From assembly GCA_035457005.1 (NCBI GenBank), contig DATICB010000001.1, positions 3,246-67,245 on the forward strand: a stretch of DNA of 64,000 nucleotides, written 5' to 3'. The notes under the pieces were generated by a model. That model saw only the letters and a list, made by a program, of their open reading frames with translations. It did no database searches and was not told the origin of the DNA. Below, piece by piece: positions 4,289-63,328 of the stretch. The position numbers and the translations under genes were made by a program. Numbering within the stretch: position 1 is the stretch's first letter; each line of letters starts with the position of its first letter. The stretch is from Patescibacteria group bacterium (GTDB lineage: Bacteria; Patescibacteriota; Microgenomatia; Levybacterales; UBA12049).

Positions 4289-4894
4289 TTACTGGGCGGA
4301 GGGTGTGCCAACTGTGGGCGTTGTGGATGGTGTTATGGTTATTGTATAGTCTGTTGTTTTTTTCAAAACTGATTCTATAATTCTATCTGCAGTCACCGCT
4401 GTTTTGGGTAAAAAGCTTATGGTTGTTGTTCCGGAAAATGTTGGGCTAACAGTATAGAAAAGGAGTGCAACAGTGCCTGTTCCTTTTTTGCCGGGCAAAT
4501 CAATTTGCTCAGTGAGTGCGTAAGAAATTCTGCCGCCAATTGTATCGATTGTATTAATCAAAGGACTCGGCTGCTGAAAAAAATCGCCGGGAGTAATAGT
4601 GACATTGGTCAGTGCTTGCGGGTCGTAGGCAAACTCGAGTTGTACTGAGTTGACGACATTGTCACCAGTGTCTATATGGACAGCAAGCGTTTGTTGGGTA
4701 AGTTGGGACGAGCTAGACGCATTTGCTGGGGTAATAGTAAGAGTGGTATGTGCATTAACCGATACTGGGGTTGGTGTTGGTTGTTGCGCTGGTGTTTGTT
4801 TTTTCTGATAAGGCGTTGAGACAAGTGCAAGATACAAAAGACCACAGGTGAGAAGAAAGAGAAAAAGAATTAACGCGAGCGTTTTTTTACTCAT
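4289..4894 (-). CDS. signal-anchored cohesin-like domain protein
   Basis: N-terminal TM segment. VQLEFAYDPQALTNV resembles the cohesin YDP..L motif. Paralogous to 62321-63328. Confidence 0.55.
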   Translation of the reverse strand: MSKKTLALILFLFLLTCGLLYLALVSTPYQKKQTPAQQPTPTPVSVNAHTTLTITPANASSSSQLTQQTLAVHIDTGDNVVNSVQLEFAYDPQALTNVTITPGDFFQQPSPLINTIDTIGGRISYALTEQIDLPGKKGTGTVALLFYTVSPTFSGTTTISFLPKTAVTADRIIESVLKKTTDYTITITPSTTPTVGTPSAQ

Positions 4895-4942
4895 AGCTGA
4901 TCTTTCTAGACTACACTAGTTTGTCTTTTTTGACAAGCAAAA

Positions 4943-7243
4943 TTAGTCTCCCGTGCATTTATTATTTGTTTGACCGCATGCGGTTACCAAGCTTCTCACC
5001 CATAAATTATAATTGAATGACCACTCATCGCCGGTTGTTCCTCCGTCTGGATAATCAAAGAAGTTCATAACATCGCCACAGGTAAATGTAATCGTCTGAT
5101 TTCCTGACACCATAGATTGTGGTGTTGTTGGATTTTGATTGCGACACGTTCGCAAAATATTGTAATCAAGTCCATTAATAACGTCATCTTGTCCCAAATT
5201 GCCTGTCCTGCCATCGACAATATCTCCCGGCAGAGGATAGACAGTAACGGTATTGGCAACACCAGAAGTAAGGGATATTTTTTCACCTTTACTACTGCTT
5301 TTACGTGCAAAGGCTTTGAGGAATTGAGGCACGCCAATATACACACGAAATTCTTTGGCAGTGGTGTAGGGAAGGACGCCAACATTAATAGGACTACTCA
5401 CAAACAGTCCAGTTGAGGAGTTATACGTGAGCGTTGTAGTTGTCCTGGTAGACGCATTGCCGCTTTGGTCAAAAATAACCACTCCTACATTGTTGCGGGT
5501 CTGATGGGCTGGATTTTTATTCTCAAAGTCCCCTGTCCCAATTCCTGGTAATTTGACATTTAGGGTAACTGTTGTTGTTTTACAAACAGTTGTTGGGATG
5601 TAGGTAGTTGGGCTGCTGTATGGACCGGTACAGGTATTGGTTTGTACTTTGTACGCTGCACCAAAGTTTTTTGCATTACTGTCATAACAACTTGTTCCCA
5701 AACTTCTGCTTGCTTTTAAGGATGAAGAAACAGTAAAAGCAGTACTTGTTGAGGAAGTGTTGCACTCATTGTATTCATCTTTCCCACTGACATCTCTGTG
5801 GAACCACCAATCAAGAATGTATTTGGTTGCACCACTTTTTGCCTTCACATTTGCCTTCACCCCAGCAAGTGTTGTCCCCGAGCAAACAGGGGAGAGGACA
5901 AGATCTGATTGTGCCGGCTTATCAGTACAGACATTAGGAGTATTTGATGTAAGCTGTTGTTGTTTTGGGTCGGCTTTGGTTGGGTCGTAGGGAGCACAGC
6001 AGGTATAATTTGATCCTTTAGCACATTTATAGGTAGGGTCTGCCTTTGTCCCTGCTTGGCAGGATGTTTGACACGCATCTGCGGTCTTGTATACTGTCTC
6101 ACAAGATGGCGCTGGAGCTGGTGTTGAGGTGGGAGCTTTGAGAGTTGGGTTTTGGGAGGCCACATAGCAACATTTTATATTCACACCGACACTTGCCATA
6201 CAGCCACTACTATTAGTGATTTCATGTGAACCACTCACCCCTAAATCTTGTTGAACCATCGTGCTACAGGGAATGGGTTGTATATTTGGACAGGTACCTG
6301 CTATTTGTGTAGCTATGTTAAATGGATCGAAGTATGGAGAACAAAAATTGACCATTACTGGGGACCATTGGTGAGAATAGGCACTTCCAGTAAATACGGC
6401 AGGGTAGTAACAGATGCCTTTCTCTGTTGCGCCATTTACAGTTCCACTACAAGAGTTTGCACCAGATGGAAGAGGCGCAGCTGTTGGGGTAGGGGTGATG
6501 GTAGGCTTGCCAGGGATACAACATTTTGCCACTGGAGTTCCTGGCAACGAGGTACTACAGGCACTTTCATTCACCGAAGATTCTGCTGCACCACTTGTGT
6601 TAGTCAAAGCGTCACATGAGGGGAGTGCTGTAGAATTGTTTGCTTTTGTTGCTACGTTTTTAGGGTTATTTGTATAGGTAGAGCCATAATTATTATGATA
6701 ATAACAAAGTCCATTATTTGTTGGTCCACAAGATTTTGCTGCATAAACTGTCCCATCAGACCCAGTTACTGGTACAGATTTTGGAGTAGGAGCGGCTTTG
6801 GGAGCAGTGTAGCCACATTTCCCATCTTGGTAATGACAGTTTGCTTTTGTTGTATAGGTACTGCATGTATTGCCACTAACATCACATATTTGCTGTCCTA
6901 CACATTGGCTATACTGCGTGTAATTATGGCAGTCTCTTTTTGCAAGGCAGCAAATATTACCAGATTTAGTAGGACATTCAGTGGTTTTAGCAGTGTAAAT
7001 ATCTGCACAATTCTCTGCAGATGTACAGAACGCTCCAGTTGCAACAGTTGAACATGTAACGGTGGTTGTACTTCCACCACCACCTTCAACCATGGCATGT
7101 TGTTGGGTGTTGGTTTGTTGGGGCAAGACTTGGACAGTCACAATAGTCCCGACAATCAAAATAAGGACAAGAAGGACTCCAAGGGTTCGGGAGTGAGTGG
7201 GAGAAAAAAGAAAGTTTTTTAGCTGTTGTAATTTTTCTTTCAT
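4943..7243 (-). CDS. large secreted Cys/Thr/Asn-rich protein (766 aa) with a C-terminal dockerin-like segment
   Basis: N-terminal TM anchor and about 60 Cys. C-terminal DDVINGLDYNIL resembles a dockerin Ca-binding repeat. Confidence 0.55.
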   Translation of the reverse strand: MKEKLQQLKNFLFSPTHSRTLGVLLVLILIVGTIVTVQVLPQQTNTQQHAMVEGGGGSTTTVTCSTVATGAFCTSAENCADIYTAKTTECPTKSGNICCLAKRDCHNYTQYSQCVGQQICDVSGNTCSTYTTKANCHYQDGKCGYTAPKAAPTPKSVPVTGSDGTVYAAKSCGPTNNGLCYYHNNYGSTYTNNPKNVATKANNSTALPSCDALTNTSGAAESSVNESACSTSLPGTPVAKCCIPGKPTITPTPTAAPLPSGANSCSGTVNGATEKGICYYPAVFTGSAYSHQWSPVMVNFCSPYFDPFNIATQIAGTCPNIQPIPCSTMVQQDLGVSGSHEITNSSGCMASVGVNIKCCYVASQNPTLKAPTSTPAPAPSCETVYKTADACQTSCQAGTKADPTYKCAKGSNYTCCAPYDPTKADPKQQQLTSNTPNVCTDKPAQSDLVLSPVCSGTTLAGVKANVKAKSGATKYILDWWFHRDVSGKDEYNECNTSSTSTAFTVSSSLKASRSLGTSCYDSNAKNFGAAYKVQTNTCTGPYSSPTTYIPTTVCKTTTVTLNVKLPGIGTGDFENKNPAHQTRNNVGVVIFDQSGNASTRTTTTLTYNSSTGLFVSSPINVGVLPYTTAKEFRVYIGVPQFLKAFARKSSSKGEKISLTSGVANTVTVYPLPGDIVDGRTGNLGQDDVINGLDYNILRTCRNQNPTTPQSMVSGNQTITFTCGDVMNFFDYPDGGTTGDEWSFNYNLWVRSLVTACGQTNNKCTGD

Positions 7244-7251
7244 CGCTATTC

Positions 7252-7330
7252 GTCATTGCGAGAAGTTCTTTTTAAGAACGACGCGGCAATCTCATACCAA
7301 AAAAGATTGCTTCACTACGTTCGCAATGAC
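7252..7330. repeat. R1 palindromic hairpin-pair element, intergenic copy
   Basis: Termini GTCATTGCGAG ... CGCAATGAC with inner GCAATC/GATTGC. Confidence 0.7.
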
Positions 7331-7911: not shown

Positions 7912-8481
7912 GTGATTCTTTCTGACAGAGACATTAAAAAAGCCCTTCAAGAAAAAAGAATTGTCATTACCCCAAAGCCTGATTTAGCAATACAGCTGGG
8001 GAGTTGTTCGGTTGATCTGCGTTTGGGCAATGCGTTTCGCGTATTTGATCATTCGCGTTTTCCTTTTATTGATCCGTCGAAAAAAGATTTTAGTAACGAA
8101 ATAACCAAAGAAGTTGTTGTAAAAGATGGGACAAATTTTATTATGCAGCCAGGGGATTTTGTTTTGGCAGTATGTCTTGAGAATGTAAAAATTCCAGCAG
8201 ATTTAATGGGGCGGTTGGAGGGACGTTCATCCCTTGGCCGTTTGGGATTGGTTGTCCATTCAACAGCATCTACTTTTGATGCCGGGTGGGATGGGAAGCC
8301 TGTTTTGGAATTGGGGAATTTGGGAAGAATGGCAATTTCTCTGACTCCTGGCATGCGTATTTGTGCCATGACATTTGAGCAGCTGAGTAGTCCTGCAGAG
8401 ACGCCCTACACGAATAAAAAATTTGCAAAATATAAATTTCAACAAAAGCCGGAAGAAAGCAAAATCCACGAGGAAAGATAA
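7912..8481 (+). CDS. dcd: dCTP deaminase
   Basis: GTG start. MILSDRDIKKAL..VDLRLGN..GRSSLGRLGL matches Dcd along its length. Confidence 0.8.
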   Translation: MILSDRDIKKALQEKRIVITPKPDLAIQLGSCSVDLRLGNAFRVFDHSRFPFIDPSKKDFSNEITKEVVVKDGTNFIMQPGDFVLAVCLENVKIPADLMGRLEGRSSLGRLGLVVHSTASTFDAGWDGKPVLELGNLGRMAISLTPGMRICAMTFEQLSSPAETPYTNKKFAKYKFQQKPEESKIHEER

Positions 8482-8482
8482 G

Positions 8483-9022
8483 ATGATTTTAGGACCGAAA
8501 AAATTATTAGAATTAGTGAGTTCAGCTAAATTGGTAGAGGGTTTGTCAGAGCGTGAGCTTACCAATCCCGAAGGTGCAGGATTTGATTTGCGACTAGGAG
8601 AGGTGTACACAATTTCTGGCGATGCATTTTTGGGCGAAACTCACAGAAAAACAGCAGACATAGAGTTAGTTCAAAGTTATGATGCAAAAGAACCTCGTTC
8701 TGTCGTTATTAAGCCAGGAGACTTTGTATTAGTTAAGACAATAGAATCAGTGAATATGCCAAACAATCTGACGGCATCTATTACTCCTCGTTCAACAACG
8801 TATCGTTCAGGTTTGATGCTTCGTACAGGCAATGTGCCACCGGGCTACTGTGGAGGACTTACATTTGGTCTAAAAAATGAAGGACCAATTGAGGTAACAA
8901 TAGAAATGGGTGCTCGGTTTGTCCACATCCAATTTAGCGAAGTTTTGGGGGAGGGGAATATGTATCGTGGTCAGTGGCAGGGAGGAAGAGTTACTGCAAC
9001 AAAAAAAGAAAAACAAGTGTAA
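8483..9022 (+). CDS. dCTP deaminase/dUTPase superfamily protein (second tandem copy)
   Basis: FDLRLGEVY ... SITPRSTTYRSGLML resembles the Dcd/Dut fold. The start was taken at the internal Met, MILGPKK. Confidence 0.6.
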   Translation: MILGPKKLLELVSSAKLVEGLSERELTNPEGAGFDLRLGEVYTISGDAFLGETHRKTADIELVQSYDAKEPRSVVIKPGDFVLVKTIESVNMPNNLTASITPRSTTYRSGLMLRTGNVPPGYCGGLTFGLKNEGPIEVTIEMGARFVHIQFSEVLGEGNMYRGQWQGGRVTATKKEKQV

Positions 9023-9366: not shown

Positions 9367-9420
9367 ATTCTCTTTGTGGTGTCTTGTCAAAAAATATATT
9401 TCGTGTTACTTTAAATCACA

Positions 9421-10472
9421 TGCCAACCTCTCAAAAACACGCTGAATATCAATATTTAGATCTTCTGAAAGAAGCACTCAAAGACGGGATTATTAAAATA
9501 GACCGAGGGACAGATATAAAACTTCATAGTTTGTTTGGTCGACAGACACGCTACGATTTATCGCAAGGATTTCCACTGCTCACAACAAAAAAAGTGTACT
9601 GGAAGGGAGTCATTCACGAGTTGTATTGGTTTATGTCAGGGCAAACAAATATTAAATATTTAGTTGATAATAACGTGCATATTTGGGACGACTATCCGTA
9701 CAAAATATATAAGACAAAAATGAGTCAGCATCATTCTGTCATTGCGAGCGAAGCGAAGCAATCTAATAAAAATAAGATTGCCGTGTCGTCTTCGACTCCT
9801 CGCAATGACATTATTTTAACAAAAGAAGAATTTATAGAAAAAATAAAGACAAATAATACGTTTGCCAAAAAATGGGGAAATCTGCCAAGAATTTATGGAG
9901 AAATGTGGCGCAAATGGCCTACCAAGACAGGCCGAACAATAGATCAGCTTGCATGGGTTTTACAGGAAATGAAAGAAGATCCTGATGCAAAAAACCTTAT
10001 TGTCACCTCGTGGAATCCAGAATATATGTATACCATGGCGACTTACGAAGACGCGAATAGGTTTCCAATTTGCCACAACATGTATCAAATCAGCAATCGC
10101 AATGGCTATTTGGACTTACAGCTGTATCAGCGCAGTGCAGATTTATTTTTAGGAGTGCCATTTAATATTGCGTCTTATGCGCTTTTGACTATGATTCTGG
10201 CAAAAATTGCAGGACTCAAGCCTGGTGTTTTTACCCATACATTTGGCGATGTGCATGTGTATGACGATCATGTCGCGGCAGTAAAAGAGCAATTAAAGAG
10301 AAAACCAAGACCATTCCCGAAAATTAAGTTTACTCATGATTTTAAAACGCTCGATGCGTTTCGACCAGAATACGTTGAATTAGTCAATTATGATCCATAC
10401 CCAACTATTAAAGCAGAATTGACTGTTGCAGGTGGACTTTTTGATAAAAAAACAGGGAAGATGGCAGGGTAA
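9421..10472 (+). CDS. thyA: thymidylate synthase ThyA with a ~50-aa small-domain insertion that contains an R1 repeat
   Basis: QYLDLL, IHELYWF, YGEMWRKW, LQLYQRSADLFLGVPFNIASYALL. An in-frame TTG at 9384 is also possible as the start. Confidence 0.85.
9738..9809. repeat. R1 element in frame inside thyA
   Basis: GTCATTGCGAGCGAAGCGAAGCAATC...GATTGCCGTGTCG...CTCGCAATGAC, translated VIASEAKQSNKNKIAVSSSTPRND. Confidence 0.75.
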
Positions 10473-29020: not shown

Positions 29021-29093
29021 GTCACGGTTGGATAGCTCTTTGAGCATTCAACGTGACCCTGTTAGATGCGAAGCTATCTAACAGGGGAGGTGA
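29021..29093 (+). promoter_or_regulatory. conserved bipartite 5' leader (hairpin A, hairpin B, GGGGAGGTG SD), copy 1
   Basis: A is GTCACG-GTTGGATAG..CATTCAA-CGTGAC. B is CTGTTAGAT-GCGAAGC-TATCTAACAG. Then GGGGAGGTGAAAAAATATG. Confidence 0.55.
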
Positions 29094-29099
29094 AAAAAT

Positions 29100-34288: not shown

Positions 34289-34363
34289 GTCATCGCGAGT
34301 TTGCCTGCTGGCAACGTGGCGATCTTTAAAAGATTGCTTCGTCACTACGTTCCTCGCAATGAC
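34289..34363. repeat. R1 element, intergenic copy filling the gap between DHH and HIT
   Basis: GTCATCGCGAG...GATTGCTTCGTCACTACGTTCCTCGCAATGAC. Confidence 0.7.
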
Positions 34364-37089: not shown

Positions 37090-37161
37090 GCTACAGTTAG
37101 ATAGTCCTTTGGACATCTAGCGTAGCCCCGTTAGATGCAAAGCTATCTAACGGGGGAGGTG
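37090..37161 (+). promoter_or_regulatory. conserved bipartite 5' leader, copy 3 (upstream of ybaB)
   Basis: A is GCTAC-AGTTAGATAG..CATCTAGC-GTAGC. B is CCGTTAGAT-GCAAAGC-TATCTAACGG. Then GGGGGAGGTGAA. Confidence 0.55.
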
Positions 37162-37172
37162 AATTACTGATT

Positions 37173-41179: not shown

Positions 41180-42007
41180 ATGTTTGACTTAGATTACACA
41201 AAAAAAGCACAAGAAATTCAGGATTGGATTGCCACAACAGTGCGTAGTGCAGGATTTGAAAAAGTTATTTTGGCAGTGTCTGGTGGTGTGGACAGCGCTG
41301 TATCGCTTAGTCTAGCAGTAAAGGCATTGGGAAAAGAAAATGTGTACGCAGTACTTTTGCCATATGGAACATTAAGTTCGGCTTCACTTGAACATGGAAA
41401 ATTGGTTGTTGAGTCTGCTGGTCTTCCAAAAGATCATGTGTTTGTCCGCGATATCCAATCAGGAGTTGATAAGCTATGGTCTGTCATTGCGAACGAAGCG
41501 AAGCAATCTGATACAAATGACGAGATTGCCGCGTCGCAAGCTCCTCGCAATGACACTTCAATTCGCCGAGGCAATATGATGGCAAGAGTGCGCATGATAT
41601 ATTTATTTGATTTGGCAAAAAGCTTGGGGGCGTTAGTTGTTGGAACAGAAAATAAAAGTGAGCATTATTTGGGCTATTTTACGCGTTTTGGAGACGAAGC
41701 ATCGGACATAGAACCAATTCGATCGTTATACAAAACACAAGTGTGGGAAATGGCAAAAAGCTTGGGAGTTCCGAAAGAAATTATCGAGAAAAAACCTTCT
41801 GCAGGGCTTTGGGAAAATCAATCAGATGAAGGAGAATTTGGTTTTTCTTATACAGATGCAGACAAAGTGTTGTATTTTTCTTTTGAAGAAAAAAAATCTC
41901 AAGAAGAAATAATTGCCTTAGGGTTTGATAAAAAATTAGTAGAAAATGTCTTGGGCTTTGCTCGCAAAAATGATTTTAAACACCACGTTCCATACATTTT
42001 TGAATAA
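41180..42007 (+). CDS. nadE: NH3-dependent NAD+ synthetase with an in-frame R1 insertion
   Basis: VILAVSGGVDSAV, RRGNMMARVRM. Confidence 0.85.
   Translation: MFDLDYTKKAQEIQDWIATTVRSAGFEKVILAVSGGVDSAVSLSLAVKALGKENVYAVLLPYGTLSSASLEHGKLVVESAGLPKDHVFVRDIQSGVDKLWSVIANEAKQSDTNDEIAASQAPRNDTSIRRGNMMARVRMIYLFDLAKSLGALVVGTENKSEHYLGYFTRFGDEASDIEPIRSLYKTQVWEMAKSLGVPKEIIEKKPSAGLWENQSDEGEFGFSYTDADKVLYFSFEEKKSQEEIIALGFDKKLVENVLGFARKNDFKHHVPYIFE
41483..41553. repeat. R1 element in frame in nadE
   Basis: GTCATTGCGAACGAAGCGAAGCAATC...GATTGCCGCGTCGCAAGCTCCTCGCAATGAC, translated VIANEAKQSDTNDEIAASQAPRND. Confidence 0.75.
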
Positions 42008-42008
42008 T

Positions 42009-42165
42009 GTCATTGCGAGGAGCGTAGTGACGAGGCAATCTTATAAAATACTTTTGTATATATCTTCAAACAAAATAATTTCTAGAGAACACAAATTCAG
42101 TATAAGATTGCCACGCTTCGCTCGCAATGACAACATAATTTTAGGCAATCCATTGCAATGACAGA
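42009..42165. repeat. R1 element, expanded intergenic copy, plus a terminal fragment
   Basis: GTCATTGCGAGGAGCGTAGTGACGAGGCAATC ... GATTGCCACGCTTCGCTCGCAATGAC, then GGCAATCCATTGCAATGAC. Confidence 0.7.
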
Positions 42166-58366: not shown

Positions 58367-59869
58367 ATGAATAAATATTTTTTTTCAATAAAAATTGTAA
58401 CATTTTTTTTACTTTTTGTAAGTTTGGTCTCAAGCGGATGGGAACCTTTTTTCTTGCATGGCCCACACTTGGTGAAAGTGTATGCTACAGCCCCACTTCC
58501 TGCATATCGTGCGACTGGTGCGTTTACTGCCGGAACAGGCGCCATAACACCCCCTTTTCCCGCAGGTATGCAGGCAGATGACGTATGCTTGCTTGCTGCC
58601 AGTTCAGAAAATCAAGCAATTACACTTTCCAGTGCTCAAGGTTTTGCAGAGGTTCCGACATGGTCTCCCCAAAGTGCAGGTACCGCCGCGACCGATCCAG
58701 GATCACGTTTGGCTCTTTTTTGGAAACGAACCGTTGGTGGAGATACTGCGCCAACGGTTGCAGATTCGGGAAATAATACAGAAGGAGTGATTCATTGTTT
58801 TTCTGGGGTAGTGAACACAGGGAATCCATGGGATACAGGTGCAGGTGGCAATGATAGTGCTGCTAATGATACAACAGGTACTATCCCGGGCGCTACGACC
58901 ACAACAGACAACGATTTAGTGGTCTTGGTTATATCAACAAGTAACAATCTAACTGCATCAACAAATTGTTCTGGCTGGGCGAATGCAAATTTGGCCGCCA
59001 TTACAGAAAGACAGGATAATAGCAATACCGTAGGTCTTGGTGGTGGGTCTTGCATGGCAACGGGAACAAAAGCTACAGCGGGTTCGTACACAACAACTAC
59101 GGTAACTATGTCGGCAACAACATTCAAGGGCGCAATATCCTTGGCTCTTAAGCCACCACAGCTGTCAACCGTTACGACACAAGCTGCGTCAAGCATAAAG
59201 GACACAACAGCAATAGCAAATGGCACTATTACGGCAACAGGTGGAGGAAATGCTGACGAGGAAGGCTTTGTCTATGACGCGACGTCACACAGTTTGCCAG
59301 GAAACGTTGCTCCAGGGTCTTCTGGGTATGCTAGCTCGGCACAAAACATAGGGAGCTTTGGTGCCGGTGCGTTTACGACAAGCTTGACTGGATTGAGTGG
59401 CGCAACGACTTATTTCGGCAGAGCTTATGCGCACAACTCAGCGGGATATAGCTACGGTGGGGAGGTCAGCTTTACAACCGGTATAATTTCTGTTTCGGTT
59501 TCAGACGGAGTTATAGCATATGGACTTATTGCGCAAAACGTATCGAAAGACACCACTGCAAGCGGATTAAATGACACGCAAACAGCAACCAACAATGGGA
59601 ATATTGCAGAAGACTTTAATATTAAGGGACAAGACAGCTCTTGTCCATGGACACTTGCTTCAAGTACAGCTACGGACCAATATAAGCATGAATTTTCGAT
59701 AAATAGTGGAAGTAATTGGACTGCGCTTACAACAAATTATCAGTCTTTAGCAAGTAACATTGCATCGAATGGGACACAAACATTTGACTTACGTCTGACA
59801 ACCCCAACAGGGACAAGCTGTTTTACACAACAATCAGTAGATGTAACTATTCAAGCAGTCGCTCATTAA
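58367..59869 (+). CDS. secreted Thr/Gly/Ala-rich surface protein; C-terminal ~130-aa domain paralogous to 60532-61029
   Basis: Signal peptide. The C-terminus ISVSVSDG...TQTFDL..TQQSVDVTIQAVAH is about 60% identical to the downstream protein. Confidence 0.6.
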   Translation: MNKYFFSIKIVTFFLLFVSLVSSGWEPFFLHGPHLVKVYATAPLPAYRATGAFTAGTGAITPPFPAGMQADDVCLLAASSENQAITLSSAQGFAEVPTWSPQSAGTAATDPGSRLALFWKRTVGGDTAPTVADSGNNTEGVIHCFSGVVNTGNPWDTGAGGNDSAANDTTGTIPGATTTTDNDLVVLVISTSNNLTASTNCSGWANANLAAITERQDNSNTVGLGGGSCMATGTKATAGSYTTTTVTMSATTFKGAISLALKPPQLSTVTTQAASSIKDTTAIANGTITATGGGNADEEGFVYDATSHSLPGNVAPGSSGYASSAQNIGSFGAGAFTTSLTGLSGATTYFGRAYAHNSAGYSYGGEVSFTTGIISVSVSDGVIAYGLIAQNVSKDTTASGLNDTQTATNNGNIAEDFNIKGQDSSCPWTLASSTATDQYKHEFSINSGSNWTALTTNYQSLASNIASNGTQTFDLRLTTPTGTSCFTQQSVDVTIQAVAH

Positions 59870-59875
59870 AAAAAG

Positions 59876-60499
59876 ATGGCAAAAAATTTTCTTCAAACAT
59901 TTTTTATAGAAAACGGTACAAAGGAAATTGTTGCAAAAGGCGAGATGATAATCCGCATTGAAAAATCTCCACAGAGCATTTTTTTTATTGAAAAAGGACA
60001 TGTGGGGGCATATATTGGTCAAGAAAATCAACTGCAAGCAATTTATCGAAAAGGGGATATGTTTCCTTTCTCTCACCATGTTATGTATTCCAGTGTCTAC
60101 TATGCAATGACGGAGACGATTTTGCGCATACTGCCATCAAAGCGCCTATATAATCTTGTCGAAAAAGATAATCGGATAGCGCGGGATTTGGTACACGTAT
60201 TAATTGAAAGAGCCGATCTTTTGAAAGACCGGCTTACTATTGTCACTACACGTACAACATATTTTCGTGTTATTCAATGGATTTTATTTGCAGGTATGCA
60301 CTTTGGAAAACAAAAAAGAAAAGTTTTGGAAATATCTCTTATTGCTACACAACAGGAATTGGCAAATGCACTTGCAACAACACGCGAGACAATTAACAGA
60401 ATATTTTCCAAACTCGAAAAAAAGGGTCTTATCCGCACAGACCAGGAAGTATTGCGAATTCCATCAATAAAAAATTTACAAAAAGAAATTTCCTCTTGA
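59876..60499 (+). CDS. Crp/Fnr family transcriptional regulator
   Basis: cNMP-binding-like domain plus HTH (LANALATTRETINRIFSKL). Confidence 0.65.
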   Translation: MAKNFLQTFFIENGTKEIVAKGEMIIRIEKSPQSIFFIEKGHVGAYIGQENQLQAIYRKGDMFPFSHHVMYSSVYYAMTETILRILPSKRLYNLVEKDNRIARDLVHVLIERADLLKDRLTIVTTRTTYFRVIQWILFAGMHFGKQKRKVLEISLIATQQELANALATTRETINRIFSKLEKKGLIRTDQEVLRIPSIKNLQKEISS

Positions 60500-60531
60500 C
60501 AAGACATGTGATATATATCACTATAAATTAT

Positions 60532-61029
60532 ATGAGATTTCTTTTCATTGTTTTTTCTATTGTCGTTGTGTCGCTATTTGGTTTTGTCTCTTTTGCGCAA
60601 GCAGCAACAACGGCATCGGTTGCAGCAACAGTTACTGTTCAAAATATTTCCGTGAGTGTTTCGGATGGATCGGTAACATATGGTACATTAGGGGTTAATT
60701 CATCTGCTGGAACAAATGGATCAGACACTCAAACAGCAACCAACAATGGTAATGTTGCAGAAGACTTAAATATTAAAGGACAAAATAGCGCAACATGGAC
60801 ACTCGCAAATTCTGCAGCATCAGATGCCTACGTCCATCAGTTTTGTGTTGCAACCTGCGGGTCAGCACCAACAAATTACACAAAACTAACAACTGCATAC
60901 CAAGCACTTGCGACGAATATCGCATCCAATGGAACACAAACATTTGATTTATATATTACGACTCCAACATCGTCCTCGAGCTTTACGCAACAATCTGTTG
61001 ACGTAACTGTGCAAGCAGTTATACACTAA
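60532..61029 (+). CDS. small secreted surface protein (SCPU/WxL-like beta-domain; paralog of the 58367 C-terminal domain)
   Basis: Signal peptide. Shared ISVSVSDG, TQTATNNGN.AED.NIKGQ, WTLA, TQTFDL, TQQSVDVT.QAV.H. Confidence 0.55.
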   Translation: MRFLFIVFSIVVVSLFGFVSFAQAATTASVAATVTVQNISVSVSDGSVTYGTLGVNSSAGTNGSDTQTATNNGNVAEDLNIKGQNSATWTLANSAASDAYVHQFCVATCGSAPTNYTKLTTAYQALATNIASNGTQTFDLYITTPTSSSSFTQQSVDVTVQAVIH

Positions 61030-61071
61030 ATCCCTTGCGATAGGATTTGCAATCCTGTATGATCTAGCCAA

Positions 61072-61686
61072 ATGAAGAAATTCCTCTTTTTATTATTATC
61101 TCTTGCACTTTTTCTTCCCGCGTCAGCATTTGCACGAATTGGCGTCGGCGTTGGTATTGGAAAAATTGTTGTTAATCAACAGTTGCGTCCAGGAATTATT
61201 TATGACTTACCTCCACTAACCGTTATTAACACAGGAGACACAACAACAAATTATCAAGTTGCAGTAACATTTAATCAAAGACAGGCGCAAAAATTTCCAA
61301 AAGCAGATTGGTTTATTTTTTCACCAGATAAATTTCAGCTAGCTCCCGGAAAAGTACAGCGAGTCGATGTAAAAGTAAATTTGCCGCTTATGATGGAGCC
61401 AGGGGATTATTTTGCATATTTAGAAGCACATCCTTTGGCTGTTGATAAAAATGGTGCAACAACAATTAATATTGCTGCTGCTGCAAAATTATACTTTACT
61501 GTTGTTCCGGCAAATATTTTCCAGGCAATGTATTACAAAACAAGCTCGTTTTGGGAACTTTACCAACCATGGACAACTGTTGTTGCAATCCTTTTTGTCT
61601 TTGTTGTTGTCGGGGTGTTACTAAAGAAATATGTTCATATTGAAATCAATATGAAACAAAAATCAACACCACCGCGCAATGAATGA
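61072..61686 (+). CDS. surface protein with N-terminal signal peptide and C-terminal TM anchor (DUF916-like topology)
   Basis: Signal peptide, beta-rich ectodomain, C-terminal hydrophobic helix then KKY. Confidence 0.5.
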   Translation: MKKFLFLLLSLALFLPASAFARIGVGVGIGKIVVNQQLRPGIIYDLPPLTVINTGDTTTNYQVAVTFNQRQAQKFPKADWFIFSPDKFQLAPGKVQRVDVKVNLPLMMEPGDYFAYLEAHPLAVDKNGATTINIAAAAKLYFTVVPANIFQAMYYKTSSFWELYQPWTTVVAILFVFVVVGVLLKKYVHIEINMKQKSTPPRNE

Positions 61687-62324
61687 AATATCTAGCAATT
61701 CTTTTTTCCGTGGCAGGATTATTATTAGTGCATAGACTTGTGTATGCATCGACTTCGTCATCGATTAACGCTACTATTAAATTAAGCGTCTGTGGTAATT
61801 TGGTCGCAGAAGGTGGGGAAGACTGTGATAATTCCGATTTAAAAGGAAAAAGTTGTACAGATTTAGGATATGGTGGAGGGAATTTGTCTTGTGATATAAG
61901 TTGCAGTTATAACACGAGTGGCTGCATTGCAGCAACACCTACGCCAACACCGACTCCCACGCCAACCCCAAGTGTTACACCTACACCAACGCCAGGTGCA
62001 CAAACAAGTTCAACAAGTGACGTTACGACAACGCCAACCAATGCACCAACAAATACGATAGTCTTTCCAACAATTCGTGCAAATGTGCAATCATTTTTCC
62101 CCAAGGCGCTGCAAGCGTTTGTTGGAGACAATGGTACAATAGCAGTAGTACAGCTCCATGCCGTATTGACACAATGGGTCAGTGGGTGGAAGAATTTTAT
62201 TCAGACCCAGCAAGACAGTCCGCAAAAAGGTGCTGCGATTGCAGCATCATCATGTGATGTTAATCAGGATGGGATTTGTGACATTTTGGATTTGTCGGTA
62301 TTACTATTTCACGTAACACAATGA
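61683..62324 (+). CDS. secreted Cys-rich protein with PT linker and C-terminal dockerin-like motif
   Basis: CDVNQDGICDILDLSVLL matches the dockerin DxNxDGxxDxxDxxxL pattern; (TP)n linker. Confidence 0.55.
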   Translation: MKYLAILFSVAGLLLVHRLVYASTSSSINATIKLSVCGNLVAEGGEDCDNSDLKGKSCTDLGYGGGNLSCDISCSYNTSGCIAATPTPTPTPTPTPSVTPTPTPGAQTSSTSDVTTTPTNAPTNTIVFPTIRANVQSFFPKALQAFVGDNGTIAVVQLHAVLTQWVSGWKNFIQTQQDSPQKGAAIAASSCDVNQDGICDILDLSVLLFHVTQ

Positions 62325-63328
62325 ATATATTAATATCCAGAACGCAAATTATTTTATATATTGCAATTTTTGCCGTTTCGTCATGGATTTTAATTCATGT
62401 CCTTAGTCTTCTTGGCGTTTTCTTAGCTCTGGCGTATCCTATTTGGTGGTTTTTTGCACCAAGACAAACAGTATGTCTTTTTTGTAGATCACGGGCAAAT
62501 GGTCAGATATGTCCACTGTGTCATCGAGTTATTTCCAAAACAGACAGTATGTCTCCCAAAACATTCTTCTCCGCACTTTTTAATGGTGGCATACTTTTTG
62601 CATTTTCTCTTGTGAGTATTGCGATTGTTGTTGTAGAAAGTCAATTTCTACATTTCTTAGGATTTCCACCAGCAAAAGCATCTGTCTCTTTTACTATTCC
62701 AACAGCAAATACGTATCGATTAGGTGAAATATTTCCTATGAAGTTGGCAATAAGCGGTGTAGATGTTCCAGTGAACACAGTCCAGGCAGATATTGCATAT
62801 GATCCACAAAAACTAGAAATTGTGAATATCTCAACAGAAAATTCTTTCGCAACCATTTTTATCCAAAAAGAAATTAATAATACTGTTGGATATGCACGAC
62901 TTACCGGTGGTCTTCCTAATCCCGGATTTTCGGGGAAAGATGGACTGTTTGGAACAGTGTACTTTAAAAGTAAACAGCCTGGCGTAACAGATGTGCGGTT
63001 TTTGCCAACAACTATGGTTTTGGCAAATGATGGGAAGGGAAGTGATGTCTTGAAAAATTTTGGGACTATTTCATACTTGGTCTTGCCAGAAAAAATATCT
63101 GATGCAGAGCAAGCGCAAGAAAATGGAAAAAATAACGTGCTTGGCGCAAGCACTAGTGGAACACAAATGATTTTCTACACAGACGAAGATGTTTTGGGAA
63201 GTAAAACAGCCGCGAAAGACAGTCTGCAGGTCAATTCATCCAAGCAATCCACTCCGGGATTTTTTGACGTTTTAGGATATGTGGACGGATTTATTGTTTC
63301 GGTTTGGCAAAAAGTACTGCATGTGTGA
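62321..63328 (+). CDS. membrane protein with Zn-ribbon-like CxxC pairs and a cohesin-like domain
   Basis: VQADIAYDPQKLEIV cohesin YDP..L motif; paralogous to 4289-4894. Confidence 0.55.
   Translation: MNILISRTQIILYIAIFAVSSWILIHVLSLLGVFLALAYPIWWFFAPRQTVCLFCRSRANGQICPLCHRVISKTDSMSPKTFFSALFNGGILFAFSLVSIAIVVVESQFLHFLGFPPAKASVSFTIPTANTYRLGEIFPMKLAISGVDVPVNTVQADIAYDPQKLEIVNISTENSFATIFIQKEINNTVGYARLTGGLPNPGFSGKDGLFGTVYFKSKQPGVTDVRFLPTTMVLANDGKGSDVLKNFGTISYLVLPEKISDAEQAQENGKNNVLGASTSGTQMIFYTDEDVLGSKTAAKDSLQVNSSKQSTPGFFDVLGYVDGFIVSVWQKVLHV

Follow-up and report, generated by a model that had tools for sequence, protein, structure and literature searches.

Cohesin–Dockerin Systems and the Window Locus

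The X-module/dockerin dyad (XDoc) of Clostridium thermocellum CipA binds the type II cohesins of SdbA, OlpB, and ScaB-type anchors. Cohesin/dockerin-like pairs are also present in the Clostridium perfringens toxin complex, and non-cellulosomal cohesin- and dockerin-like modules are reportedly widespread in Bacteria and Archaea. The canonical dockerin fold consists of two duplicated Ca2+-binding F-hand segments with Asp or Asn at loop positions 1, 3, 5, 9, and 12. Type II pairs serve to link scaffoldins to anchors on the cell surface, and type III dockerins, which have no canonical second Ca2+ loop, are still functional (PMC12484212). Here, we describe two adjacent genes of a Patescibacteria group bacterium, a member of the candidate phyla radiation (CPR), located in a stretch of 64,000 nucleotides (GenBank assembly GCA_035457005.1, contig DATICB010000001.1, positions 3,246–67,245), which is hereafter called the window. 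These genes probably encode a two-part, non-cellulosomal cohesin–XDoc system for surface display of a variable cargo, a reading to which we assign a probability of roughly 0.68.

The two open reading frames (ORFs) lie on the minus strand and are separated by 48 nt; their adjacency had been described in an earlier note on the window, made from the sequence alone. The ORF at 4289–4894, coh1, encodes a 201-aa protein that bears a single cohesin by Pfam and is the proposed membrane anchor, or socket. The ORF at 4943–7243 encodes a 766-aa Cys-rich, predicted secreted protein with a C-terminal XDoc, the proposed cargo, or plug; it is identical to an NCBI hypothetical protein of a Patescibacteria metagenome-assembled genome (MAG).

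The best structural matches of this C-terminal module are the clostridial type II cohesin/XDoc complexes, namely C. thermocellum CipA with SdbA, OlpB, or ScaC (PDB 2B59, 3KCP, 5G5D) and Acetivibrio cellulolyticus ScaA with ScaB Coh3 (PDB 4U3S, 4WI0). As in those complexes, a C-terminal Ig-like β-sandwich is packed, in the model described below, on a two-helix dockerin-like part, and homology to them is detectable at the sequence level through CPR intermediates. As in clostridial type II anchoring, the predicted partner is an envelope-anchored cohesin protein and the predicted role is surface attachment, not enzyme recruitment (PMC12484212). Unlike the clostridial systems, the window locus belongs to a Patescibacteria host, its cargo is a hypervariable Cys-rich region, and the proposed anchor has an N-terminal, presumed membrane helix in place of surface layer homology (SLH) domains or sortase. 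The window dyad also differs in that its first Ca2+ loop is broken by an insertion, its second loop is non-canonical, and a β-hairpin with a conserved disulfide pair lies between the repeats. A cellulosome was considered and ruled out; the window has no carbohydrate-active enzymes, no carbohydrate-binding module, and no multi-cohesin scaffoldin.

Ruminococcal type III dockerins, with their reduced symmetry and missing canonical second Ca2+ loop, provide a precedent for the degenerate second repeat in the window. However, neither sequence nor structure searches matched the module specifically to type III dockerins, and its best match is the type II XDoc. The locus resembles other non-cellulosomal cohesins and dockerins in having single-copy modules on proteins unrelated to plant cell-wall degradation, with a presumed role in protein–protein assembly. 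It differs from them in that the cohesin partner escapes Pfam, is an XDoc dyad, and belongs to a conserved two-gene cassette whose payload is swappable and evolves fast.

The C-Terminal Module of the 766-aa Protein

An exhaustive HMMER scan of 1.84e9 representative sequences yielded 35 relatives of the 766-aa protein, almost all of which share only query residues ~552–757; a word-indexed homologue search with the same protein retrieved nothing but the query itself. The family alignment has three parts, namely a conserved N-terminal helix with a Q-rich motif after it, a hypervariable Cys-rich middle, and a conserved C-terminal region of ~210 aa. Judged from profile comparisons and a structural model, this C-terminal region is a diverged homologue of an X-module/type II-like dockerin dyad.

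An AlphaFold2 (AF2) model of residues 547–766, built from 25 family sequences, has a mean predicted local distance difference test score (pLDDT) of 87.4 and a predicted template modeling score (pTM) of 0.83, and consists of a β-sandwich followed by a helix, a β-hairpin, a short helix, and a long helix. The X-module-like β-sandwich spans residues ~554–668 (5240–5584, minus strand; model residues 8–122, in blocks mostly of pLDDT 84–97), and single homologues of this region give weak PEGA matches. The diverged dockerin-like subdomain, delimited by the AF2 model and hhalign, spans residues ~669–757 (4973–5239, minus strand) and is ordered as loop-helix 1, a β-hairpin with the invariant C700/C722 pair, and loop-helix 2; its helices in the model are H145–153 and H192–211, with the hairpin between them. 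In the model, the Ig-like β-sandwich thus lies directly N-terminal to the dockerin-like subdomain, is packed on it, and forms with it the C-terminus of the protein, as in an XDoc. A Foldseek search of the Protein Data Bank (PDB) with the whole module gave only two matches at E ≤ 1e-3, 4wi0_B (E = 1.8e-5) and 4u3s_B, in both cases the A. cellulolyticus ScaA X-module/dockerin chain from a complex with a type II cohesin. Two independent fold-search methods agree in aligning the module with the CipA and ScaA XDoc structures.

Sequence homology to characterized XDoc modules is established by a transitive link through more distant CPR modules. We compared a profile of the C-terminal modules of the 766-aa family (A3) with a profile of modules of the type found in two distant loci, L009 and L010 (A6). 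The C-terminal modules of the XDoc proteins of these loci score 25–52 bits against the 766-aa-family profile, and A6 members score 25.7 (L009_411), 22.2, and 20.2 bits against Pfam Dockerin_1 (PF00404; cutoff, 22.9). The two profiles align in hhalign with 99.15% probability (E = 3.8e-19, 166 columns), and in this alignment the loop-helices of the window family pair with both F-hand repeats of the Dockerin_1-positive modules. The A6 profile in turn matches the CipA XDoc in the PDB (2b59_B, 3kcp_A, 5g5d_B; E = 2.8e-7 to 2.8e-6), the ScaA XDoc (E = 0.006), and type I dockerins (E = 0.01–0.05). The A3–A6 alignment and the A6–CipA matches together therefore argue for XDoc homology of the window module.

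The correspondence extends to individual motifs. The segment DDVINGLDYNIL (residues 686–697; 5153–5188, minus strand), placed by sequence and hhalign, extends over the second half of Ca-type loop 1 into the beginning of helix 1, and its residues D693 and Y694 are invariant across the family. Hhalign pairs it with NALNIVDYSTL of the CPR modules, and HMMER pairs the CPR-module profile segment vlnildynil with SINLLDVAEV of CipA. The earlier note had proposed a dockerin-like signature at the C-terminus of the 766-aa protein; fold searches and profile–profile comparison place this motif in the first loop-helix of the XDoc dyad, whereas Pfam Dockerin_1 and a strict dockerin regular expression, run on the six frames of the window, are silent. 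NCBIfam likewise returned nothing for the protein.

The Cohesin Protein

The 201-aa product of coh1 is, on the evidence of profile matches, a true cohesin domain protein. It scores 25.4 bits against Pfam Cohesin (PF00963; gathering cutoff, 24.1) over residues 71–187, and nearly all of its 114 homologues, which are ~200 aa long, match PF00963. Among the named homologues, those of Patescibacteria or Levybacteria MAGs predominate, and NCBI already lists some as cohesin domain-containing protein. A coh1 family profile matches the solved cohesin 6kg8_A (E = 1e-7), aligning query residues 43–187 with chain residues 5–151, which is the full domain; the cohesin domain of coh1 is accordingly placed at residues ~43–187 (4334–4768, minus strand) by Pfam and this alignment. 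The family profile also matches ScaB, SdbA, and other cohesins, and since type I and type II cohesins are matched alike, it does not assign coh1 to either type. A phmmer search of PDB sequences with coh1 itself gave only motif-level cohesin matches (E ~1).

The protein carries the cohesin-type motif FAYDPQALTNV and a single N-terminal hydrophobic helix, in agreement with the motif and signal anchor noted previously. The helix, identified by hydropathy at residues ~5–25 (4820–4882, minus strand), is followed by a short P/T/Q-rich stalk, and hydropathy windows above 1.6 occur only at residues 1–29. An AxA-type cleavage site is missing from the family consensus. The helix is presumed to be a signal anchor, with the topology deduced from these features. 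Lipoprotein anchoring through the LLTC sequence was considered and ruled out, as the Cys is not kept across the family.

Genomic Linkage of the Proposed Cargo and Anchor

In a census with local hidden Markov models (HMMs), an XDoc-bearing ORF lies immediately upstream of a coh1-type cohesin gene, on the same strand, at seven of seven independent loci (the window, L001, L003, L005, L006, L009, and L010). Within the window, the same HMMs find exactly two cohesins, each on its own protein, and a single XDoc. In relatives with long contigs, the gene just upstream of the coh1 orthologue encodes a 660–739-aa protein without a Pfam match every time, and the flanks of the pair are kept, with dCTP deaminase on one side and an F420-ligase-like gene on the other. 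Synteny around the coh1 orthologues thus retrieves the 766-aa family independently of the homologue search. Secreted-protein genes also lie directly upstream of the small cohesin gene in L009 and L010, the more distant coh1 relatives. The payload differs between lineages, being Cys-rich in the clade of the window and VWA plus SdrD_B (adhesin-like) in L010, with cohesin-containing payloads in both L009 and L010, whereas the XDoc/cohesin order is constant; this suggests a cassette logic in which any cargo with an XDoc is followed by an anchor cohesin. Binding of the XDoc to the cohesin is what we infer from this linkage and from the identity of the modules.

The pairing of cohesin and dockerin modules that the earlier note had put forward is supported by the Foldseek XDoc matches, the hhalign result, the CipA matches, and the adjacency at all census loci. 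Its further suggestion of a self-assembling scaffold stands as to the paired modules; since there is one module per protein in the window, the arrangement is that of an anchor plus cargo, not of a multi-cohesin scaffold.

The hypervariable payload, delimited by composition and syntenic comparison, spans residues ~60–553 (5585–7066, minus strand) and contains 37 Cys; the entire protein has 42, below the ~60 estimated previously. It is built of modules of the form C-x4-6-C-x8-16-C-x5-7-[VIF]-CC, of which there are three to five per protein, and matches no Pfam or NCBIfam domain. Between syntenic genomes, pairwise identity is 22–30% in the payload, with indels and length changes, compared with 31–57% in the XDoc module, 56–73% in the cohesin protein, and 57–81% in the F420-ligase-like housekeeping neighbor, which is about level with the cohesin. 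A diversity-generating retroelement (DGR) was considered as a source of the payload variability and set aside, as no template/variable repeat in the window involves the 766-aa gene. In L005, a bAvd-like gene (523–918; a DGR accessory gene, PF22296 and PF05635) lies ~4 kb from the cohesin/XDoc pair.

The N-terminal helix of the 766-aa protein (residues 21–41) and the Q-rich motif PQQTNTQQHAM (residues 42–52) together occupy 7088–7183 on the minus strand, as defined by hydropathy and family alignment A1. A Q-rich motif that ends in Ala directly follows the N-terminal helix in every XDoc-bearing protein (QQTNTQQHA at window 7088–7120, SQQQQENRSQA, and SQQQQNPRGKAA), and in the window no other protein has it. 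This motif may serve specifically as a signal for processing or sorting.

Single proteins that combine a cohesin with a C-terminal XDoc, reminiscent of adaptor scaffoldins, occur in relatives only, at L009 (1629–2948 and 3707–4957) and L010 (1658–3121). Such proteins could form a head-to-tail chain on the small anchored cohesin.

Proposed Mechanism and Alternative Explanations

By analogy with cell-surface attachment through type II cohesin–XDoc binding (PMC12484212), coh1 would act as a membrane-anchored socket. The Cys-rich 766-aa protein would be exported through Sec, and its XDoc tail would plug into the anchored coh1, so that binding would hold the variable, disulfide-rich region on the cell surface. 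There, the displayed region would most plausibly serve adhesion or host recognition and be subject to diversifying selection.

Several observations weigh against this display system. Pfam matches no family in the full-length 766-aa protein, and Dockerin_1 has no match at E ≤ 10 to its isolated C-terminus or to any of five isolated C-terminal modules of the family. Compared directly with PDB sequences, the A3 profile has a type I dockerin repeat as its best match, which is suggestive but falls short of significance (E = 0.44). The dockerin-like subdomain modeled alone has a pLDDT of 67 and gives no meaningful fold matches and no PDB dockerin; this drop in confidence fits a dependence on packing against the X-module, and the fold evidence thus rests on the whole dyad. 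Loop 1 has an insertion of 8–14 residues, and loop 2 is longer, with Pro/Gly at positions 3 and 5 and Asn replacing Asp12. With such non-canonical loops, Ca2+ dependence and cohesin binding may be altered or lost. In addition, a hydrophobic helix is present at the N-terminus of the 766-aa protein too; if this is uncleaved, the protein would already be tethered to the membrane, making the cohesin anchor redundant. A scan for promoters and terminators gave counts within ~2 SD of the shuffled expectation and defined no operon boundary.

Uncleaved tethering underlies an alternative in which the modules are correctly identified but the 766-aa protein is held by its own helix, and the XDoc–cohesin contact is made in trans between cells (in self-recognition, aggregation, or as a biofilm adhesin) or provides a second attachment point that stretches the Cys-rich region over the surface. 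The helix itself speaks for this, as its 21 hydrophobic residues follow a charged N-terminus of 20 residues, which is long for a cleaved signal peptide, and the cohesin-plus-XDoc proteins of relatives could chain in the same head-to-tail manner. The conserved Q-rich motif ending in Ala, however, resembles a processing site, and strict one-to-one gene adjacency is the pattern expected of an anchor–cargo pair, and we consider contact in trans or two-point attachment unlikely. It is also rather improbable that the C-terminal module is an XDoc relic that has lost cohesin binding and now serves as a structural tail or one that binds the cell wall or S-layer, with another partner for the cohesin and adjacency reflecting shared regulation of surface proteins. 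Such a relic would account for the degenerate Ca2+ loops, the Pfam silence on the window copy, and the failure of the isolated subdomain to retrieve a dockerin in the fold search. Yet the invariant residues D674, D693/Y694, D733–G735, N744–Y745–N746, and W748 cluster exactly in the two loop-helix elements, which argues for a maintained binding function. Adjacency also persists in lineages with a swapped payload, and type III dockerins bind without a canonical second loop (PMC12484212).

That the motif matches arose by chance in unrelated neighboring genes is hardly credible. The points in favor are that Pfam scores no dockerin above its cutoff in the 766-aa protein or in the candidate dockerin protein of a second pair in the window (see below), and that the strict regular expression finds nothing. 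Chance is already contradicted by the agreement of two independent fold-search methods, the profile–profile homology, the sequence matches to the CipA XDoc via intermediates, and the adjacency at each of the seven loci. Display of an XDoc-tagged cargo on an anchored cohesin is the reading that we retain at the strength given above.

A Second Cohesin–Dockerin Pair

The second pair, which the earlier note had placed at 61683–63328, is borne out as two overlapping plus-strand genes that encode a conserved dockerin/cohesin pair. The first gene, doc2 (61683–62324), encodes, after a signal peptide and a Cys-rich CGN..EGGEDCD domain, a PT linker that leads to a two-repeat dockerin at the C-terminus (residues ~139–212; Pfam and alignment A5). 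The second, coh2 (62321–63328), encodes three hydrophobic helices, a CxxC..CxxC zinc ribbon at residues 52–67, and a cohesin at residues 123–237 (Pfam). The start and stop codons overlap by 4 nt, with doc2 first.

The window copy of doc2 scores 13.4 bits against Dockerin_1, a half-dockerin match under the 22.9 cutoff; its repeat 2 is canonical (DVNQDGICDILD) and its repeat 1 degenerate. The doc2 family, of about 36 proteins, has a uniform build of signal peptide, CGN..EGGEDCD domain, PT linker, and two F-hand repeats, and Dockerin_1 matches 9 of 31 members at E ≤ 0.01 (best, P0158 with 29.6 bits; P0178, 25.2 bits). The dockerin of the second pair is thus, on these profile scores, real at the level of the family. 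The coh2 protein scores 32.4 bits against Pfam Cohesin and is also matched by the coh1-family HMM (E = 6e-11). Searches of PDB sequences by phmmer with the 766-aa, doc2, and coh2 proteins gave noise only. It had been proposed that failure of profile searches to score cohesin or dockerin domains would mark the motif matches as chance; for PF00963 and PF00404, Pfam scores both window cohesins and neither window dockerin above cutoff, so that this outcome was obtained for the dockerin half only.

The second pair appears to be separate from the first, a classical two-F-hand dockerin with a polytopic cohesin anchor, between which binding is presumed from the module types. The XDoc profile does not match doc2, and the two pairs thus use different dockerin types, which suggests that they are orthogonal.

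L007 and L008 show the order of doc2 and then a cohesin gene as well, as part of a conserved five-gene cluster. In the window, this surface-protein cluster spans 58367–63328, ends with the second pair, and encodes, in order, a ~500-aa protein, a ~177-aa protein, a ~204-aa protein, doc2, and coh2; the last three genes are joined by 4-nt overlaps. A gene for a Crp/Fnr-type regulator (59876–60499) is inserted after the first gene of the cluster in the window. The ~204-aa protein has a C-terminal hydrophobic helix and weak PapD/fn3-like matches. A 66-nt direct repeat (59573–59638 and 60724–60789, 89% identity) gives the 500-aa and 177-aa proteins a shared paralogous segment, DTQTATNNGN(V/I)AEDLNIKGQ. 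Residues 1–110 of coh2 form an unusual anchor, in which the zinc-ribbon-like motif, CxxC-x8-CxxC, lies between helices 2 and 3; the anchor has weak matches to Spt4/RpoE''-type ribbons and to DZR_2.

Neighboring Genes and Repeats

Two dCTP deaminase-like ORFs (7912–8481 and 8423–9022) adjoin thymidylate synthase in the window, and genes for dCTP deaminase, thymidylate kinase/deoxynucleoside kinase (dNK), thymidylate synthase, and dihydrofolate reductase (DHFR) flank the cohesin/XDoc pair in relatives; the cassette thus sits in a stable nucleotide-metabolism neighborhood.

A palindromic element resembling miniature inverted-repeat transposable elements (MITEs) or repetitive extragenic palindromes (REPs), with termini GTCATTGCGA...TCGCAATGAC, is present in at least five copies (7252–7330, 9738–9809, 34289–34363, 41483–41554, and 42009–42131). 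It gives 17 matches at ≤1 mismatch against 3.9 expected, a count reached in 0 of 100 shuffles. One copy lies 9 nt upstream of the start codon of the 766-aa gene, and another is in frame within the thymidylate synthase ORF (9384–10472), where it encodes VIASEAKQS.... Within a 71-nt direct repeat (29024–29094 and 37093–37163, 80% identity) lies a hairpin, CCCTGTTAGAT...ATCTAACAGGG, and the repeat ends with GGAGGTGAA. This repeat may provide two downstream genes with a common 5′ leader or regulatory element.

Implications for Patescibacteria

Most CPR bacteria, or Patescibacteria, have not been cultured, and a life attached to other cells is assumed for them; the way in which their attachment surfaces are built and varied is poorly understood. 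That non-cellulosomal cohesins and dockerins are widespread is already known, and relatives of coh1 are annotated as cohesin domain-containing. The searchable literature holds no relevant earlier account of a CPR cohesin–dockerin pair, and the Pfam-invisible XDoc, the conserved two-gene cassette with swappable hypervariable cargo, and the occurrence in CPR appear to be undescribed there.

A broader proposal is put forward tentatively, and we regard it as somewhat doubtful. Patescibacteria, as episymbionts, might own a dedicated, modular plug-and-socket cassette, in which a conserved membrane-anchored cohesin stands beside a swappable cargo with a lineage-specific XDoc, for the fast exchange and diversification of disulfide-rich host-attachment adhesins; some lineages might polymerize cohesin-plus-XDoc proteins head to tail into a surface fiber that consists of cohesin–dockerin links throughout.

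Pfam is blind to what is probably a real dockerin family in these genomes, and the 766-aa protein and all of its relatives carry the annotation hypothetical. As an orthogonal affinity pair, the small anchor and plug could also be of use in protein engineering. If the proposed reading is true, type II cohesin–XDoc anchoring would extend far beyond cellulolytic Firmicutes, and a cohesin anchor with an XDoc-tagged hypervariable cargo would provide a concrete, testable mechanism of surface display for CPR bacteria.

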